A DNA stretch of 6,352 nt, from contig JALVPN010000042.1 of NCBI GenBank assembly GCA_027031765.1, forward strand, positions 1 to 6,352. Direction: 5' to 3'. Of this stretch, positions 1 to 6,352 are shown in pieces; position 1 is the first letter of the stretch; every line of letters starts with the position of its first letter. Source of the DNA: Promethearchaeota archaeon. Its GTDB lineage: Archaea; Asgardarchaeota; Thorarchaeia; Thorarchaeales; Thorarchaeaceae. Made by a program: the position numbers and the translations under genes. Below the pieces are notes generated by a model that was not told where the DNA came from, did no database searches, and was given only the letters and a program-made list of their open reading frames with translations.

Positions 1-888
1 GCCGAGTACAGGCGGAGGGAGGCGGCAGCTGTCAGAGAAGAGGCGAAGAGCGAAATACTGCGGAACATCAAGAGGAGTGTCATCGTGGCGTTGGTCTTCA
101 CAGTCCCCGCACTCATCTTTGTCGTCGGGGTGATTGGCTTCTCGACTCGCAGTAGGGCGATGTTCTCGCTCATGTTCTTGTTCATGAGTCCAATCATTTC
201 ATTCATAGTGGCATTTGTTGTGACTCAATTCCTGTCTAGAGGCCATGGGGCCGGTTCTGACGCTGACCACCAAGAGGAAACATATCGTTCGGGGTTGGAC
301 GAAGAGATAGAGGAGCTCATCAGGCGTAGCTCGGTCGGAGGAGCAATGTCGGTGAGGACAGCCCGCGCTGAAGACGGTGTGGAGTATCTTGTCGTCTTCG
401 ACTCGCCCAGTCCCTCGACAGACACAAGACTGCTGACACTGGTCCCGCATATCGCGGAACTCTTGGGAAGTGCTGATATGCTGGCCCCGTACATCCTCTA
501 CGAGACTCGCCGACAGGCCATAGTATCACGTTACGAGCGACTCATATGGGCCCTCACACTTGGTTCCACGGTCTTGTTTATCATATTCCTGCTGGCCGGT
601 CTTGCCAGCGGATCCCCACTGGACATAGTCCAGACACTGATGATATTCCTCGTGTGTTCTTTCGCTACCCTCTCTCTGAACCATCTCTGGTTCCGTCACA
701 CTACTTTTGAGCTGGACGTCAGGCTGGCGAGGGAGTTTCCAAGGTACATCGAGATGCTGCACAGACTGTACGAGGACGGATATGAAACGCCGTACATGGG
801 ATATCCTCTAAGAAAGAGATTCGAATATCTTAGTCGCAGAGGCTACGAGTCAGCAAGTGTGGGGTCGCCACCTTCCCCTGACTCTTAG
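1..888 (+). CDS. 5'-partial multi-pass membrane protein; probable catalytically inactive M48 (HtpX/Ste24-like) peptidase homolog
   Basis: Frame 1 is open from base 1 (AEYRRREAAAVREEAKSEILRNIKRSVIVALVF...), so the GTG at 85 is probably not the real start. It ends at TAG 886-888, followed directly by TGA. There are about 4 hydrophobic segments. The order of segments mirrors M48 peptidases: LLTLVPHIAELL...LAPYILYETRRQ (HExxH position), two TMs, RHTTFELDVRL (ExxAD position), IEMLHRL, GYPLRKRFEYL (HP..R position). The CDS is well supported; the family assignment is by-eye only. Confidence 0.75.
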   Translation, partial: AEYRRREAAAVREEAKSEILRNIKRSVIVALVFTVPALIFVVGVIGFSTRSRAMFSLMFLFMSPIISFIVAFVVTQFLSRGHGAGSDADHQEETYRSGLDEEIEELIRRSSVGGAMSVRTARAEDGVEYLVVFDSPSPSTDTRLLTLVPHIAELLGSADMLAPYILYETRRQAIVSRYERLIWALTLGSTVLFIIFLLAGLASGSPLDIVQTLMIFLVCSFATLSLNHLWFRHTTFELDVRLAREFPRYIEMLHRLYEDGYETPYMGYPLRKRFEYLSRRGYESASVGSPPSPDS

Positions 889-1027
889 TGAGCTGTCACG
901 TGGACTACCCAGAAACTATCACTGGGGGCCACGACTGAGAGGGGCGCCGGGGGGCAACACCGCGACCGCAAGCAGTGCGGTTCCAACTCTCAAGAGGGGG
1001 CGATGGTGATGTCAGCCGACCGACCAG

Positions 1028-1066
1028 CTCCCTGTGCGTACTCCCTGTACGCACTCCCTGCACGAC
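1028..1066. repeat. Imperfect 13-bp tandem repeat x3
   Basis: ctccctgtgcgta / ctccctgtacgca / ctccctgcacgac at 1028-1040, 1041-1053 and 1054-1066. Confidence 0.85.
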
Positions 1067-1650
1067 GCACCATTCACAAGCTAGTCCTAGCATCTTAACT
1101 CCGGCTATCTCCGCTGCGTCATCATAGTCAACAACCACCCCCTCTGCGACTTCTACGCTGCCCAAGTTTCTCTTCGCTGATCCGAGAATACGTCGCGTCT
1201 GCAACTCTGTCATATTCTGCACGCATCTCTTACACAACTGCCTTTCTAGTACAGGGGGTCTTCTCATGCATCAATGCAGAGAACAGAACAAGCTGTTTCA
1301 TTTCAACGGCTCTGTGTGAGAAGTCTGAGGGAGCAGTCCTTTCAGCTCAATAGTGGGAGTCAGTGATTGGACTGGATCCCCATATCAAGAATGTGACCAA
1401 TACTTGCAGTGCCAACCGACTTTCCACACAACACTCATCAACAAAGAAACAAGAATGTGACTCTGAAGGATAGACTCGTTTTCGCCTGGTCCTCCTGTTA
1501 CCACAGGAGTGCCTAGTTCTTGCATCTCGTTATCCTCCATAGTGTCGGTTGTAGTGGTGTGCGGTAGCAAGACCAAATATGACTGGGAGTACAGCCAATC
1601 TGCTGGCTCTTGAAGGTCTACACATAGTATGCAGAGCATCAAGCACCATT

Positions 1651-1667
1651 GAGGTATTGTCGCACTC
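1651..1667. repeat. Dispersed direct repeat shared with 3441-3457 (encodes ECDNxS on the minus strand)
   Basis: gaggtattgtcgcactc (1651-1667) vs gaggcattgtcgcactc (3441-3457), 16/17 identical. Confidence 0.85.
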
Positions 1668-1973
1668 CGCTATCGGACATACACTCTCCTGTCCGTCAAT
1701 GCTCAGATATGCCGTTCCGTGGCTACCCTGAAACGGATTCCACCACAACTCCCCTGCCTCGACAGAGGGGGAGGCCATGATTCCCTGACGGCTGCACACC
1801 ACTACCTCCATTCTGTGGGTAGGAACAGACGTTGGGCCAGCCCCTGGTGGTACCACCTCACACATCGTCCCGGTCCACCCCATGCACCGCCCCGTGGACA
1901 GGCATCACGGTCTCTCCCGCCCATCGTCCAGGCCGTAGTTGATATGCTCTGCCGTCTGCTGGGCCCTGAAGAG

Positions 1974-2543
1974 TCAGACGCTAGACGGGCCATGCTCCTC
2001 AATGTCCTCTTCATCATCTGCCAGACTCAAGGCATCATTTTCGAGGTATTCTACAAGTGATCCAAGAGGGCTAGCAGAACTGTAGCAGACGCTCGCGACA
2101 ATGAAGAATGTTATTAGTATCGGGACGCCGTCGACACCATATATTACGGCTACAAGCAGGACAGCAATTTGCAGTAGTATCCCTACAGTAGGTAGGACTA
2201 TCCCCAACAACAGTACGGTCCTTGATGTCTGCTTGTCCTGCCATATCAAGACGCGCTCTCCTCTTTCCCTGGCATCTCTCCAGAGCTGAGGGACAAAGGT
2301 GTCGTACAGATACGAAACCGGCAGTGTGGAGAGTAGCAGTCCTCCGTACCATACTGCAATAATCGAAAAGAGTAGGAACACATAGAAGAATGCTTGAGCG
2401 TCACGGGTCAGAATCAGCCAGCCGAAGGGGAGAAAAATAGCATATATTACTGCACATGATACCAGGTCTTTGACATGACCCTTTCGACCTGCGCGTCCGC
2501 TCAGACCAGCACCTTCTCCCTCACCATCAACAGCTCTGTCCAT
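1974..2543 (-). CDS. Hypothetical membrane protein (about 189 aa, about 4 TM, acidic C-terminal tail); candidate immunity/partner protein of the 2561-3706 cassette
   Basis: Open frame ending at TGA 1974-1976. The ATG at 2543 (MDRAVDGEG...) follows a GGTGGTG motif and lies 17 nt after the upstream TAG; an alternative ATG is at 2555. Four hydrophobic stretches are present, with tail LADDEEDIEEHGPSSV. The immunity role is inference from position. Confidence 0.8.
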   Translation of the reverse strand: MDRAVDGEGEGAGLSGRAGRKGHVKDLVSCAVIYAIFLPFGWLILTRDAQAFFYVFLLFSIIAVWYGGLLLSTLPVSYLYDTFVPQLWRDARERGERVLIWQDKQTSRTVLLLGIVLPTVGILLQIAVLLVAVIYGVDGVPILITFFIVASVCYSSASPLGSLVEYLENDALSLADDEEDIEEHGPSSV

Positions 2544-2546
2544 AAG

Positions 2547-2553
2547 CACCACC
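2547..2553 (-). promoter_or_regulatory. Putative Shine-Dalgarno site GGTGGTG for the ATG at 2543
   Basis: Minus strand reads catGGTGGTGcttATG; a near-identical context occurs at 4720-4737. Confidence 0.5.
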
Positions 2554-2560
2554 ATGTCCA

Positions 2561-3706
2561 CTAGACCCCACCGGTCCAGCACTCATAAAGCCACCACCCA
2601 GCCCCTATGAACAGTGCAACGGCAATACCAACTACTACAATGAATGCGCACTTTGTGTACCTCAGGCATTCCTTTAACCACCCAAGCTGTGGTATTCTTT
2701 GTGCCACCTTGTGTGCTTCTAGTGCAATGGATCGTGAGGACGACCTGCGGAGACCAAGTGCGGCACCCGCCCATATGATCCCAGTGCCGACGAGGAAAAG
2801 AAAGGCCTTGAAGCTGCTCCACTTACCATTTTCGACCATGTGCCATGCACAGATAAGTGGCAGTGATACAGCCAGCAGTGCCTGGAGGGTCAGTGCAGCA
2901 GCTGCCAAGGTAGTGGCAACAGCATTGCCAGTATTGACGGCCCACTCCAGAGCCCCCGCAGCAAACGTAGTCCCGGCAACCAGAGCGGGCGTAATCACTT
3001 GTTGAATACAGACCTCCACCAGTTCGTCAATGTCATCTTCTGTGAGTCCCGGGCCACCATCCATGGTGAAGGACAGACACTCGGTCGCACCAAAGAGGTT
3101 CCTTGCAATATGGCCCTAGACTGACAGTGCAGAGTCAGGCTGACCTGTATATGCAGAAAGGTCAATCGCATAGGAGAATACGACATGGAGCAGAGGCCAC
3201 GGGCCGGTCCAGTAGACCTCGATGCGCGTCATAGCATCCGTCAGGAGCTCGTCACTCTGCAAGAAATCATCACTCGTAAGACTGCCCGTCCCATCATACG
3301 CCACCGGCTCCTCCGGGTCTGGTGCTGTCGGGTCGTGCCGCGTCAGGTCCGCCACCACCCTGATGTCGTGGACCCGCATCCCCACCAGCTCGGGACTGGA
3401 GTACCTGTAGCCTAGGACTGCCACGTACTTGACCACCCGGGAGGCATTGTCGCACTCGCCCAGCGGGTATGGTGCGTCCTCCCCACCGGTACTGGCGTAT
3501 ACCGCACCTTGTACTGCGTCGTCGTGCGCCCCGTCAAACTCGCCCCACCAGGACCTGACCGTCTTCTGGAAAAAGGACGTGTAGCTGTAGCCGGACCACT
3601 TGCGGCAAGGCGACCCGCTGTCCTGTGGGTAGAAGTACGCAAAGACGTAGCCCTTCCTGGCGTTGGACCATGAGTCACCAAACACCACCATCACTACCCG
3701 TCGCAT
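2561..3706 (-). pseudogene. Second paralogous cassette: conserved N-terminal part plus hydrophobic C-terminal domain, interrupted by one in-frame TAG (3116-3118)
   Basis: ORFs 3116..3706 and 2561..3064 are in the same frame, separated only by TAG plus 17 sense codons (GHIARNLFGATECLSFT). The joined product is about 381 aa and is colinear with the 4719-5899 cassette (KYVAVLGYR..VVADLTRHDPTAPDPEE; GPWPLL; four C-terminal Ala/Gly-rich hydrophobic segments). The frame is closed by TGA 22 codons upstream of 3706, and there is no well-spaced RBS. Confidence 0.75.
3312..3359. repeat. 48-bp dispersed direct repeat, copy 1 (encodes VVADLTRHDPxxPDP on the minus strand)
   Basis: 41/48 identical to 5542-5589; offset 2230 bp. 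Confidence 0.9.
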
Positions 3707-3750
3707 CTCCTCGTCGCTCTGTACTCCAGGAGTATATCTCCGTGGGGGTT

Positions 3751-3975
3751 TCAGATACGTGAGATGTCAAGGCACTCAGAGCCCAAGAGTCCTGGTGGCT
3801 GGGACCCGGGGCCCTTCAATCCCTTCTCAGTTTGCCCATTTGTCTTCCCCGCCCATCCCAGAGTTACATAGAAGACCAAGGGCGCCACAAGAGGAAAGAC
3901 AACACCTATGGCGGACAGTCCAGGCAGGCAGTGCAACATCGTCTTGCATGTTCTTCTTCTCAACAGGACCAGCAC
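3751..3975 (-). other. Short ORF with one hydrophobic segment; possible remnant of a membrane-protein gene
   Basis: LPGLSAIGVVFPLVAPLVFYVTLGW is TM-like. There is no convincing RBS, and two in-frame stops lie directly upstream. It may be a pseudogene fragment or spurious. Confidence 0.3.
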
Positions 3976-4035
3976 TCAACTTCAAGACGCCCTTTCACCT
4001 GTGCCTGTGCCCGGCCATGCGGTCAGGATTGTGGA

Positions 4036-4722
4036 CTACCACGTCACTCCAAAGCGTTCTCTCAGTTGTTCCTGTGCCGCACTTGCAAGAATGTCTGCAA
4101 GGCCTTCAGTCCCACCACCGTCTTCATCGCTCGCTTCCACTTCGACTTCTTTTCCGGCATACATCCGAAGAACCCCTTCCACAACTGCTCGGGGTCTTCC
4201 AGCAGGGCCCAGGAGAAAGTCAATGAACTTCTTGAAGAAGAGGACGGGATTCCTGGAGTGACGCATCACTCTACACAGAACAGTCAGATCGGTCTGTATT
4301 CGGGACTGGGGGTCTGCAACCCCTTCCTTCATCGCTCTCTGTCGAGTCTTCTCAAGGCGGTCTTTCAGTCGCAGACCATTGTAATATCGCCCTTGACAAC
4401 AGACATTGACGAAACCGGCAGCGAAAGGCATTGTCATGGCACCCCTTAGACCGACCAGTGGATAACTACTAATCCCGGCAAAGGCCATTCCAACAAGGTA
4501 GAGAATATTGACCGTAGCTTCTAGGAGCACCGGGTGGGTCAAGAAGAGTCGGAAAGCAGACGTATCCCATCGACTACCTGGAACAACTGGACGGGACTGC
4601 TCAACTATCTCGTGAATAGTGAGTTCAATGGACATGGCCAATGCCGAAAAGAGTGCGGAGAAAAAGGCTGCACCTACAATGAGAATGAAACCCACGAACT
4701 TTTCAGAGAAGATGGCCATCAT
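4036..4722 (-). CDS. Hypothetical membrane-anchored protein (about 228 aa, 2-3 N-terminal TM, soluble C-terminal part with acidic patch); candidate partner of the 4719-5899 cassette
   Basis: The ATG at 4722 overlaps the upstream TGA (ATGA, 4719-4722) and is preceded by GGTGGTGA, so it is preferred over the ORF-track start at 4812. Sequence runs MMAIFSEKFVGFILIVGAAFFSALF... to EVEVEASDEDGGG...RFGVTW, ending at TAG 4036-4038. Confidence 0.75.
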   Translation of the reverse strand: MMAIFSEKFVGFILIVGAAFFSALFSALAMSIELTIHEIVEQSRPVVPGSRWDTSAFRLFLTHPVLLEATVNILYLVGMAFAGISSYPLVGLRGAMTMPFAAGFVNVCCQGRYYNGLRLKDRLEKTRQRAMKEGVADPQSRIQTDLTVLCRVMRHSRNPVLFFKKFIDFLLGPAGRPRAVVEGVLRMYAGKEVEVEASDEDGGGTEGLADILASAAQEQLRERFGVTW

Positions 4723-4726
4723 AAAG

Positions 4727-4734
4727 TCACCACC
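4727..4734 (-). promoter_or_regulatory. Putative Shine-Dalgarno site GGTGGTGA for ATG 4722/4719
   Basis: Minus strand reads catGGTGGTGActttATGATG; complementary to the conserved 16S rRNA 3' end (UCACC). Confidence 0.55.
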
Positions 4735-5541
4735 ATGCCAGCTGGTATTAGTAATAAACGTTGCACGGGGCAAGAAGCTACTGTGCCCAGCAGAAAACTG
4801 AGGGTCGCCCAACTGAAACGTGGGTCACTTAGACATAGGAGGTCGGAAGTGTCGATAGCAATATGGGAACCAGACATACTGGCTAGCACTTCATAAATGC
4901 GTATTAGTCTAGGAATTAGTTTGGAAGCGATTGATCCAGCGACTGATGCAAGTTTTCCAGAAAGCAACGCTAAAAGTGCGCTGATAGCTCCACCCAACAC
5001 CATTAACCAGACAACTCCTGCCTCAGGATATCCGAAAATCTCGATAGCTGTTGCTGTAAGAGAGTATGCAGTCGCTACAAATGTGCAGGTTAAGACTGTA
5101 GCTGCAACAGCAGCTGCAACCAATGCAGCCCTTGAAACGTCAGCAAACATGAGCGTATCTACAGATACCCATCCGGCCAAGGCAAAGTCCATGAAGACGG
5201 TTATCAGAACGAAGTTAACAACGTTCTCGTACATCTCAGCAATAAGCGCATTGATATATTCTACTTTGTCACCTGTAGAGCCAATCAGGTTGAAAAGCCA
5301 ATCTTCCACTATACAAGTATAGACTGTAATCACTTTCAACAGATCGATACCCAAATGAAGCAGGACGCCAGTCGTGTCAACAGGGTTGAGGACTTGCAGG
5401 TTGAGCACTGGCCAACCAATATTGAGAGTCCAGAACATCTTGACAAGTTGACCTGTTGCATCAGCAATGGCAGCACCAGCTCGTGCTTGCTCTTCTGAAG
5501 AGACTGCTCCTCCGCGTGTCCCATCGGACTCCTCTCGCTCA

Positions 5542-5589
5542 TCCGGGTCTGGCTCATCCGGGTCGTGTCGTGTCAGGTCCGCCACCACC
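5542..5589. repeat. 48-bp dispersed direct repeat, copy 2
   Basis: 41/48 identical to 3312-3359. A flanking second match is tgccacgtacctga (5648-5661) vs tgccacgtacttga (3419-3432). Confidence 0.9.
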
Positions 5590-5892
5590 TTCATGTTGTC
5601 GGCTCCCATCTCAAGGGGGGACAGGAGTAGGCCCTGTGACCGAGCAGTGCCACGTACCTGATGCCACACGACGCACTGGCAGCGTAAGCCAGCGGACAGG
5701 ATGACCCCGGGCCGTCGGTGCTGGCAGGAAAAAGGGCCGTCCTGAGGGTGGGGACAGTCGTCGGGGGCATCCACCTGGGCACTGTCCCAGTGTACCACCA
5801 CTGGCACCCGTGTCCGACTGTCAGGCAGGACTGCCTGTCCTCTTCCGCTCGCCGGGCGACCGTGCACTCCCAGTCGTCTGTGACTCGCCCGG

Positions 5893-6348
5893 TCAGCACA
5901 GTGGTGGACCTGAACTCTCCCCCGAATCAGTCCATTCCCCGTCATCTCCTTCTTCAGTCCACTCCTCCTGGACCTTCCACTCCTCCTGGACCTCATGGGC
6001 CACACGGCTCTCAATTGTGGGATATCTGTAGAGCATAAGCCATTGGCGAATGCCTGTGAAGGGGAGGGGGTAGAACAACAGAAAACCTAGGGTCGTGCCA
6101 ATCTTGAGGCCAATATTAATCTCTGCCATCCACGGCCAGGCCAGTAGGAGCAGCCCATCCACGACATATAGGATGTCCACAAGACAGTCATAGGCCCGCT
6201 GATGGGTGAGATACATCTTTACTCGCCAACCGACCTGGTCCTCGGAAAGGCCCTCCCCGGCCGGGCCCGTCCCTGAGACCGACCGTCCCCCCTCAGAGAT
6301 ATCGGCCTCATCGATGGGACGAGCACCGGAGATATCGGCCTCATCCAT
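5893..6348 (-). CDS. Hypothetical small membrane protein (about 151 aa, 2 TM, acidic tail); possibly 5'-partial
   Basis: Open frame with two hydrophobic segments (LVDILYVVDGLLLLAWPW; IGTTLGFLLFYPLPFTGI) and an acidic tail EEWTEEGDDGEWTDSGES, ending at TGA 5893-5895. The ATG at 6348 lies inside a repeat unit and the frame is open to the window edge, so the start is uncertain. Confidence 0.7.
   Translation of the reverse strand: MDEADISGARPIDEADISEGGRSVSGTGPAGEGLSEDQVGWRVKMYLTHQRAYDCLVDILYVVDGLLLLAWPWMAEINIGLKIGTTLGFLLFYPLPFTGIRQWLMLYRYPTIESRVAHEVQEEWKVQEEWTEEGDDGEWTDSGESSGPPLC
5958..5993. repeat. Perfect 18-bp tandem duplication (VQEEWK/VQEEWT)
   Basis: tccactcctcctggacct at 5958-5975 and 5976-5993; frame-preserving. 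Confidence 0.95.
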
Positions 6349-6352
6349 GGGA
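6296..6352. repeat. 24-bp direct repeat with 33-bp period (PxDEADIS x2)
   Basis: gagatatcggcctcatcgatggga (6296-6319) vs gagatatcggcctcatccatggga (6329-6352), 23/24 identical; may continue beyond the window. Confidence 0.9.

Follow-up and report, generated by a model that had tools for sequence, protein, structure and literature searches.

Bacterial polymorphic toxin systems, such as CdiA-CT/CdiI, Rhs-CT/RhsI and MafB/MafI, consist of a large exported protein, in which a short motif sets off a variable C-terminal tip from the constant body, and a cognate small gene located immediately downstream; arrays of 5'-truncated tip-plus-partner modules follow the parent gene (PMC3482391). Caspase-like releasing peptidases, Sec-dependent polymorphic toxins and polyimmunity loci have been described as well by Zhang et al. 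2012 (PMC3482391). In archaea, polymorphic toxin systems had been predicted but were experimentally untested as of 2021 (PMC8416519). Here we analyze a locus with the same organization in an Asgard archaeon, namely, the entire 6352-bp contig C42 (hereinafter, the window) of a 2.95-Mb, 95% complete archaeal genome of the Thorarchaeota, for which the source sequencing run is a hydrothermal-vent metagenome. As a preliminary description of the window had it, truncated paralogous cassettes alternate with small membrane genes on the minus strand, and our calls of open reading frames (ORFs) recover this arrangement in place. The polymorphic toxin/immunity-like architecture of the locus is firmly supported. 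On balance, we read the window as the orphan-cassette tail of a polymorphic effector/partner system, most likely, one of contact- or membrane-delivered toxins and immunity proteins, with toxicity, immunity and delivery all putative. So far, the system was found only in Asgard archaea, chiefly, in Thorarchaeia.

The organization is that of polymorphic toxin systems, but the domains that define the contact-dependent inhibition (CDI), Rhs, MafB, LXG and colicin systems are absent from our scans. As in bacterial polymorphic toxins, the parent protein contains a predicted caspase-like (clan CD) domain and the distribution among strains is patchy, and partner-only loci, such as L020, resemble bacterial polyimmunity loci (PMC3482391). 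However, searches of Pfam and NCBIfam yielded no TPS, FHA, RHS, PAAR, LXG, VENN or DUF1020 domains, and no recognized trafficking or pre-toxin domain (TPS, PAAR, LXG/WXG, RHS, VENN, HINT, DUF1020 and others) was detected in the Pfam scans of P0001, P0002 and the window ORFs. The host is a single-membrane archaeon, the tips represent one helical membrane domain rather than many enzyme families, and the peptidase-like domain is N-terminal. Unlike the CdiA/CdiB systems, the Asgard loci show no match to the TPS domain, FHA repeats, VENN motif or CdiB in Pfam and NCBIfam, and the neighbors of the six parents examined are housekeeping genes; unlike the Rhs/YD proteins, the parents show no RHS match, and the junction reads VVADLxRHDP ... 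DGT ... W..WP instead of the PxxxxDPxGL cleavage motif.

The closest published archaeal module, VARTIG of the Thermococcales (Makarova et al. 2021, PMC8416519), is likewise lineage-specific and includes a large secreted protein with a recombination-driven hypervariable C-terminus and variable downstream genes, an organization that its authors likened to polymorphic toxin systems. What varies in VARTIG is a C-terminal immunoglobulin (Ig) domain, with Ig-domain downstream genes, whereas in the Asgard family, it is a polytopic helical membrane tail accompanied by small membrane partners; the two modules also differ in their protein families and in lineage. The VARTIG authors' own searches, which were made among Ig and CARDB proteins, turned up no counterpart outside Thermococcales (PMC8416519). 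Among the traits of VARTIG (arCOG07710-type proteins, Ig, CARDB), no Ig or CARDB match was obtained with Pfam in the Asgard parents P0001 and P0002.

Pore-forming colicins and membrane-depolarizing tips of the CdiA-CT(EC93) type are countered by integral-membrane immunity proteins of narrow specificity. There, too, a hydrophobic helical effector is paired with a small membrane protein, and one effector domain has diverged into immunity groups. The Asgard tip has no match to the ten-helix colicin pore domain, either as Pfam Colicin or as a fold in the PDB, although helical membrane models are hard to match, and it is more hydrophobic than the colicin domain, consistent with constitutive membrane insertion. 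Our literature search turned up no paper that describes a system of this kind from Asgard archaea, with the proviso that a 2019 mBio survey of archaeal polymorphic toxins, which was outside the search, might list the family, and none that links Thorarchaeota with polymorphic toxins or immunity proteins.

A family of large proteins with a constant body and a variable membrane tail

The conserved N-terminal part of the cassettes recurs nine times in the genome, with E values from 1e-17 to 1e-145. Contig C221, which also carries the gene for the archaeal marker RadA, contains six to seven truncated copies, and the genome as a whole encompasses one parent and about ten truncated copies. The parent, P0001 on contig C137, is at least 1283 amino acids (aa) long, with about 50 N-terminal residues cut off by the contig end, and is the sole copy in the genome that has the N-terminal region. 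The preliminary description had anticipated a full-length parent containing VVADLTRHDP and a signal peptide or export domain; the gene exists and belongs to the same family, on a contig other than that of the window, and a signal-like hydrophobic N-terminus is present in all full-length members. In that description, none of the motifs was recognized as matching a family, and comparison of the window ORFs with Pfam and NCBIfam gave nothing above noise.

From the N- to the C-terminus, the full-length members consist of the signal-like segment, a conserved domain of about 270 aa, a proline-rich linker, beta-sandwich repeats, the junction (VVADLxRHDP, an acidic linker, DGT and W..WP) and a hypervariable tail of about 200 aa, in which a small sheet is followed by five or six long hydrophobic helices. 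The beta-sandwich module of about 200 aa is present in two to five copies, sometimes, with Glce_b_sandwich/CBM-like, DUF2341 or concanavalin-like inserts; judging by sequence, these repeats appear to be of the glycan-binding type and to form an adhesin-like ectodomain. In P0001 and P0002, Pfam detects only Glce_b_sandwich and a weak CBM_4_9 match, to which P0004 adds DUF2341 and GH43_C2, and a sequence search of the PDB with the parent produced no match.

A database search retrieved 28 relatives of 700-2100 aa, every one annotated as "hypothetical" and the named ones assigned to Thorarchaeota or Promethearchaeota. A profile of the junction and tip matched 232 clusters at 50% identity among 1.84 billion representatives, a number to be read as "at least"; most of these are 250-470 aa long, that is, of orphan size, and the names sampled are Thorarchaeota plus one labelled Lokiarchaeota. 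The motifs WW, ECDN, YVA.LG.R and VVADLTRHDP, which had been noticed as shared among the window cassettes, turn out to be motifs of the family, recurring in the 28 relatives and the 232 clusters.

Of 87 genomes that represent the class, about 18 match the N-terminal domain strongly, usually, once each. Tips are present in 30 genomes, which contain as many as 22 of them and often have them arranged in tandem immediately after the parent. The interpretation of the window as the orphan-cassette tail of a polymorphic locus finds its counterpart in arrays located downstream of parents in L018, G022:C77, G052:C7 and G003:C12; truncated tip-plus-partner arrays also occur in C221 and G014:C39, as in the window itself. 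About twenty orphan clusters (P0044-P0047, P0051, P0064-P0066 and others) consist of proteins, about 265 aa in length, whose annotated start is the conserved Met of an MR(I/V)HDI motif, 5-7 residues ahead of VVADL. This Met could be an internal start from which tips are expressed alone, or else could reflect a habit of the gene caller.

Tips and partners are replaced together at a DNA-conserved junction

In pairs of closely related parents, similarity ends abruptly at the junction. Over the first 330 aa, P0012 and P0016 share 98% identity, and up to about residue 1070, the identity stays at about 95% before it falls to about 15%, the pattern of constant N-terminus and variable C-terminus that had been predicted; P0007 and P0008 are about 85% identical before the junction and about 20% identical after it. 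At the DNA level, L014 and L015, two syntenic loci, are 92% identical as far as the junction, unalignable over the next 1.5-2.5 kb and then 97.6% identical. The replaced block consists of the tail and two small membrane genes, and the second conserved flank begins ahead of the next housekeeping gene. The pair L012 and L016 displays block replacement of this kind, too. The replaced tip-and-partner blocks are flanked by DNA with 92-98% identity.

The junction itself is conserved at the nucleotide level. Across the nine genomic copies, pairwise DNA identity averages 84-85% around the VVADLTRHDP codons, compared to about 70% in the 90 nt upstream and about 40% downstream, and in eight of the nine copies, the GC (guanine plus cytosine) content drops at the junction from about 0.63 to about 0.50; in cassette 1 of the window, it is 0.66 upstream and 0.46 in the tip. 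The corresponding anchor of cassette 2 is 83-89% identical to six C221 copies and to the C137 parent over about 130-180 nt.

The tips of the window can be related to those of other family members. That of cassette 1, with its acidic linker, W..WP, small beta-sheet and 5-6 long hydrophobic helices, shares 38% identity in 277 aa with the tail of P0028, a protein of 1380 aa, and 31% identity with the L018 orphan. That of cassette 2 aligns with the tails of P0012 and P0006 over about 250 aa, with about 26% identity. Separately, C221 contains a stand-alone scrap (12991-13239) that shares 73% identity with the final 83 residues of the tip of the parent itself; the gene that follows (12480-13019) and the start of the partner of the parent are 88% identical. 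The two resemble a copy of the resident module that was displaced or duplicated.

Partner genes co-vary with tips and persist without them

In all six parents examined, a gene for a protein with 2-3 hydrophobic segments is located 1-23 bp downstream. The partners track the tips: in all five pairs of tips with at least 55% identity (A-C, B-F, G-parent, P0010-A and P0010-C; 55-73%), the partners are similar as well, at 42-88% identity, and the sole further partner match is a weak one (27%) between loci of other genomes. Together with the replacement of tip and partner genes as a unit, this co-variation bears out the tight coupling of each partner to the adjacent tip proposed in the preliminary description. 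Partner1 of the window and the partner of the distant L018 tip share no similarity, a comparison that is uninformative at 31% tip identity.

Some partners have outlasted their tips. The partner1 homologs P0032 and P0033 (56% and 52% identity, respectively) are conserved end to end. P0032, in L019, is a solitary gene surrounded by housekeeping genes, and the 9.4 kb examined there include no tip. P0033 belongs to L020, an array of genes similar to partner0, partnerG (the parent's partner) and partner1, in which the cassettes are represented only by scraps of 30-47 aa. Of all the observations, these separate the competing readings best: partners that are intact where the tips are broken or gone would be expected if selection favors protection from the tips of other cells and are difficult to explain if each partner does no more than serve its own tail.

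Within C221, two small membrane ORFs of 163 and 202 aa, with 3-5 hydrophobic segments and no cassette ahead of them (17109-18299, minus strand), look like additional orphan partner genes. The C221 cassette array also contains a toxin-antitoxin pair of a Polbeta/NTP_transf_2 nucleotidyltransferase and a HepT-like (HEPN) protein (L010/L011; 11266-12131, minus strand), and MazE/PIN and nucleotidyltransferase genes are located near the L018 array.

A candidate peptidase at the N-terminus of the parent

In 22 sequences, a His-Gly pair (H77-G78) and a Cys located 35 residues later (C112; numbering of P0003:25-320) are invariant, and in the structural model (predicted local distance difference test, pLDDT, 71), they directly follow the predicted strands E71-75 and E106-109. 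A Foldseek search with the model of this domain leads with the Vibrio MARTX autoprocessing protease, C11 protease, CHAT, legumains and caspase-11. An aligner independent of Foldseek (VIA) places CHAT (8tl0) first, with Z 11.3 over 160 residues, with legumains and metacaspase next, so that clan CD structures are at the top of both fold searches: 3eeb (E 8e-4), 6n9j, 8tl0, legumains, metacaspase and caspases. The domain has the His-Gly/Cys arrangement of the clan CD peptidases (C80 of MARTX and TcdA-B, C11, CHAT, C13 legumain and metacaspases), and its predicted alpha/beta fold may be theirs as well, but there is no Pfam match and the template-modeling (TM) scores are low. Its identification as a clan CD cysteine peptidase-like domain and candidate peptidase is moderately supported. 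Proteins of about 1590-1600 aa encoded in G073:C73, G074:C5, G077:C146, G078:C67 and G026:C31 match weakly (E about 1e-7) only the His..Cys core, and by their sequences, would constitute another family of large proteins that has a related peptidase-like domain.

Toxin, identity determinant or membrane anchor

If the system is one of toxins and immunity proteins, the tail would damage the membrane of cells that lack the matching partner, and the partner would bind the tail inside the membrane and neutralize it. The peptidase-like domain would process the parent protein, the DNA-conserved junction would let orphan modules recombine into the parent, and orphan partners would provide standing immunity against the tails of other strains.

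A number of observations weigh against this reading. The tips, which the preliminary description had as diverging into Ala/Gly-rich domains with about 4 hydrophobic segments, are not unrelated to each other but appear to be distant homologs of one hypervariable helical domain, 25-38% identical over the full length, in contrast to the mix of unrelated toxin domains in the classic polymorphic toxin systems. The tip model had no Foldseek match in the PDB at E <= 0.001, and comparison with the ESM Atlas yielded only TM <= 0.25 by shape and no usable match by features. No known toxin, immunity or trafficking domain was detected with Pfam and NCBIfam in the window ORFs or with Pfam in P0001 and P0002. 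The tails carry strongly hydrophobic segments and, therefore, after Sec export, should insert in the producer's own membrane; near the loci, there are no secretion-machine genes and no evident route to a neighbor cell. Most orphans in the 30 genomes with tips are open frames without stops, which also fits expressed genes in their own right. The fold matches of the N-terminal domain are moderate, with Foldseek TM scores of 0.26-0.37 and generic periplasmic-binding/LacI alpha/beta folds at Z about 9, and the location of this domain at the N-terminus is not that of the caspase-like releasing peptidases that are known to process Sec-exported polymorphic toxins and usually sit just upstream of the tip (PMC3482391).

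The single homologous tip domain, the lack of a toxin fold, the expected insertion in the producer membrane and the lack of a delivery route make self-recognition a serious rival, even if we consider it unlikely. In this case, tail and partner would form an allele-specific pair, within or between membranes, that decides on adhesion, membrane fusion or cooperation between Thorarchaeia cells, without killing. The closest comparison is with the Ids identity proteins of Proteus, the specificity of which resides in membrane regions. Diversification of one domain into at least 232 clusters at 50% identity, rather than a choice among many enzymes, the strict co-variation with a membrane partner, the adhesin-like ectodomain with its modules of apparent glycan-binding type, and a tail that is expected to remain in the producer's membrane all fit this possibility, and the authors of VARTIG weighed the same option for their module (PMC8416519). 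Lone partners and partner-only arrays are easier to understand as protection, although cheater-type or broadened recognition could produce them too, and in the window, the broken tips adjoin intact partners, which also counts against recognition.

A broader proposal, which we put forward with considerable doubt, is that Thorarchaeia run contact-dependent conflict or kin recognition in which a membrane-integral helical determinant is read in the membrane by an allele-specific partner. Such reading would imply that membrane proteins pass between cells, by fusion, by contact of protrusions or in vesicles; if true, the system would offer a way to study genetically how cells exchange membrane in the lineage of archaea that is closest to eukaryotes.

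Less probable still is that the tail is a variable membrane anchor of a surface adhesin or enzyme, with the truncated copies serving as silent cassettes or pseudogenes for gene conversion and the partners as accessory or insertion helpers. The DNA-conserved junction could drive gene conversion, the truncated copies begin inside a domain and lack a signal peptide of their own, and there is usually one parent per genome, all as this explanation would have it. However, the part that varies is membrane-embedded rather than surface-exposed, which leaves no obvious reason in terms of immune or virus evasion, silent cassettes would not each need a partner gene, and an accessory subunit would be useless without the tail, yet lone partners are conserved end to end at 52-56% identity. 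That the array is functionless debris, that is, copies of the 3' end of a large gene in the course of decay, separated by ORFs that arose by chance, appears highly improbable because, although all three window cassettes are damaged and 905-1385 has no relatives, the partner ORFs are intact and their homologs are conserved in other genomes, which already contradicts it, as do the open frames of most orphans and the modular replacement between conserved flanks.

Whichever of the conflict and recognition functions applies, the family is a clean, abundant case of a locus with the comparative hallmarks of conflict or recognition, unannotated components and a membrane-embedded variable element. The tip and partner pairs are testable material for how Asgard cells fight or recognize each other, the N-terminal domain offers a candidate autoprocessing peptidase, and a class of small membrane "hypothetical" genes in these genomes can be explained as probable immunity or identity genes.

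Organization of the window and damage to its cassettes

On the minus strand, the ORF calls and the reading of the sequence give the order partner0, cassette 1, partner1, cassette 2, partner2, cassette 3 remnant, with the following features.

5893..6348, minus strand: partner0, intact ORF for a 151-aa small membrane protein with one strongly hydrophobic segment
4719 to about 5830, minus strand: cassette 1, whole, frameshifted
5595..5830, minus strand: pre-junction part of cassette 1, the second half of the last beta-sandwich module, with WW, AST.G and YVALLGHR
5543..5693, minus strand: junction anchor of cassette 1, conserved at the nucleotide level, candidate recombination substrate
4719..5594, minus strand: junction and tip of cassette 1, open 291-aa frame beginning M-KVVADLTRHDP
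4036..4722, minus strand: partner1, intact, 228 aa, the start overlapping the stop of cassette 1 (ATGA)
2561..3715, minus strand: cassette 2, whole, one frame split by a TAG
3119..3715, minus strand: 5'-truncated conserved part and junction of cassette 2, 64.5% identity to P0002 residues 261-453
3313..3463, minus strand: junction anchor of cassette 2, conserved at the nucleotide level, with DNA identity to the C221 and C137 copies
3116..3118, minus strand: in-frame TAG of cassette 2, the two halves being in the same frame
2561..3115, minus strand: remainder of the cassette 2 tip, helical membrane domain with 3 strongly hydrophobic segments
1974..2582, minus strand: partner2, intact, about 190-202 aa, 3-4 hydrophobic segments and an acidic tail
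about 1530..1900, minus strand: cassette 3 remnant, with a frameshift upstream of WW and an internal deletion
1385..1525, minus strand: truncated remnant of partner 3, beginning MQELGTPV like the partner of P0003, then diverging and stopping after 47 codons

These boundaries modify those of the preliminary description. Cassette 1 is in its place but reaches only to about 5830, not 5899, and is frameshifted; cassette 2 is likewise where it was put (2561-3706) but extends to 3715 and is interrupted by a single TAG; partner2 is present and intact, at 1974-2582 in place of the proposed 1974-2543. Cassette 3, thought to span about 905-1883, shrinks to about 1530-1900.

Partner0 has a 50% identical homolog in the partner-only array L020, and its cognate tip would lie past the contig end. 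Partner1 combines 2 N-terminal hydrophobic segments with a conserved soluble C-terminal half, whereas partner2 has no paralog in the genome. The partner 3 remnant was compared with L017 9480-10025, the first eight codons matching those of the P0003 partner. A scan of the window, C137 and C221 against Rfam gave no match.

All three tips in the window are broken, by a frameshift, an in-frame TAG and an internal deletion, respectively, whereas partners 0 to 2 are intact. In cassette 1, a three-frame reading shows that the frameshift near 5615-5625 separates the pre-junction part from the frame of the tip, and tblastn searches with P0001, P0002 and L018_363 match 5633-5725 in one frame and the sequence from 5612 downward in another. 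In cassette 2, homology to the parent begins at DEEMRRVV, within the last beta-sandwich module, at the same truncation point as in the intact orphan of locus L018, and similarity to other tips carries on past the TAG. In cassette 3, an internal deletion joins ECDN to the last 41 aa of a P0003-like tip (78% identity): with tblastn, P0003 residues 1390-1430 map to 1536-1652 (78%), and residues 1111-1150 map to 1641-1760.

Assembly error as the source of the TAG and the frameshift was rejected as far as contigs can show. Logan contigs, an independent assembly of the source run, reproduce 3012-3353 and 3686-6028 unchanged and with no indel, and because of this exact match, neither lesion is an artifact of the genome assembly, a check that rests on the contigs of one run. 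Introns or a different genetic code were rejected as well: the genome is archaeal, TAG is an ordinary stop codon that ends 739 of the 1907 long ORFs, and ARAGORN found no tRNA with the anticodon CUA among the 24 anticodon types recovered, a limited number that is expected if intron-containing archaeal tRNAs are missed. A tRNA-SeC (anticodon TCA) is among the ARAGORN predictions for the genome as well.

The minus-strand region 905-1385, which separates the cassette 3 remnant from the convergent gene at the left end of the window, includes a 120-aa ORF (905-1267). Neither the genome nor the protein families searched contain a relative, and the region probably is non-coding or fully decayed. The convergent gene (1-888, plus strand) is unrelated to the cassettes and encodes the last 295 aa of a membrane protein with four hydrophobic segments, from a family of proteins of about 540-680 aa that is represented in 11 of the 87 related genomes. 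A weak homolog (24% identity, with one TAG inside) is located between two tips in G023:C5, so this family may be loosely associated with tip arrays.

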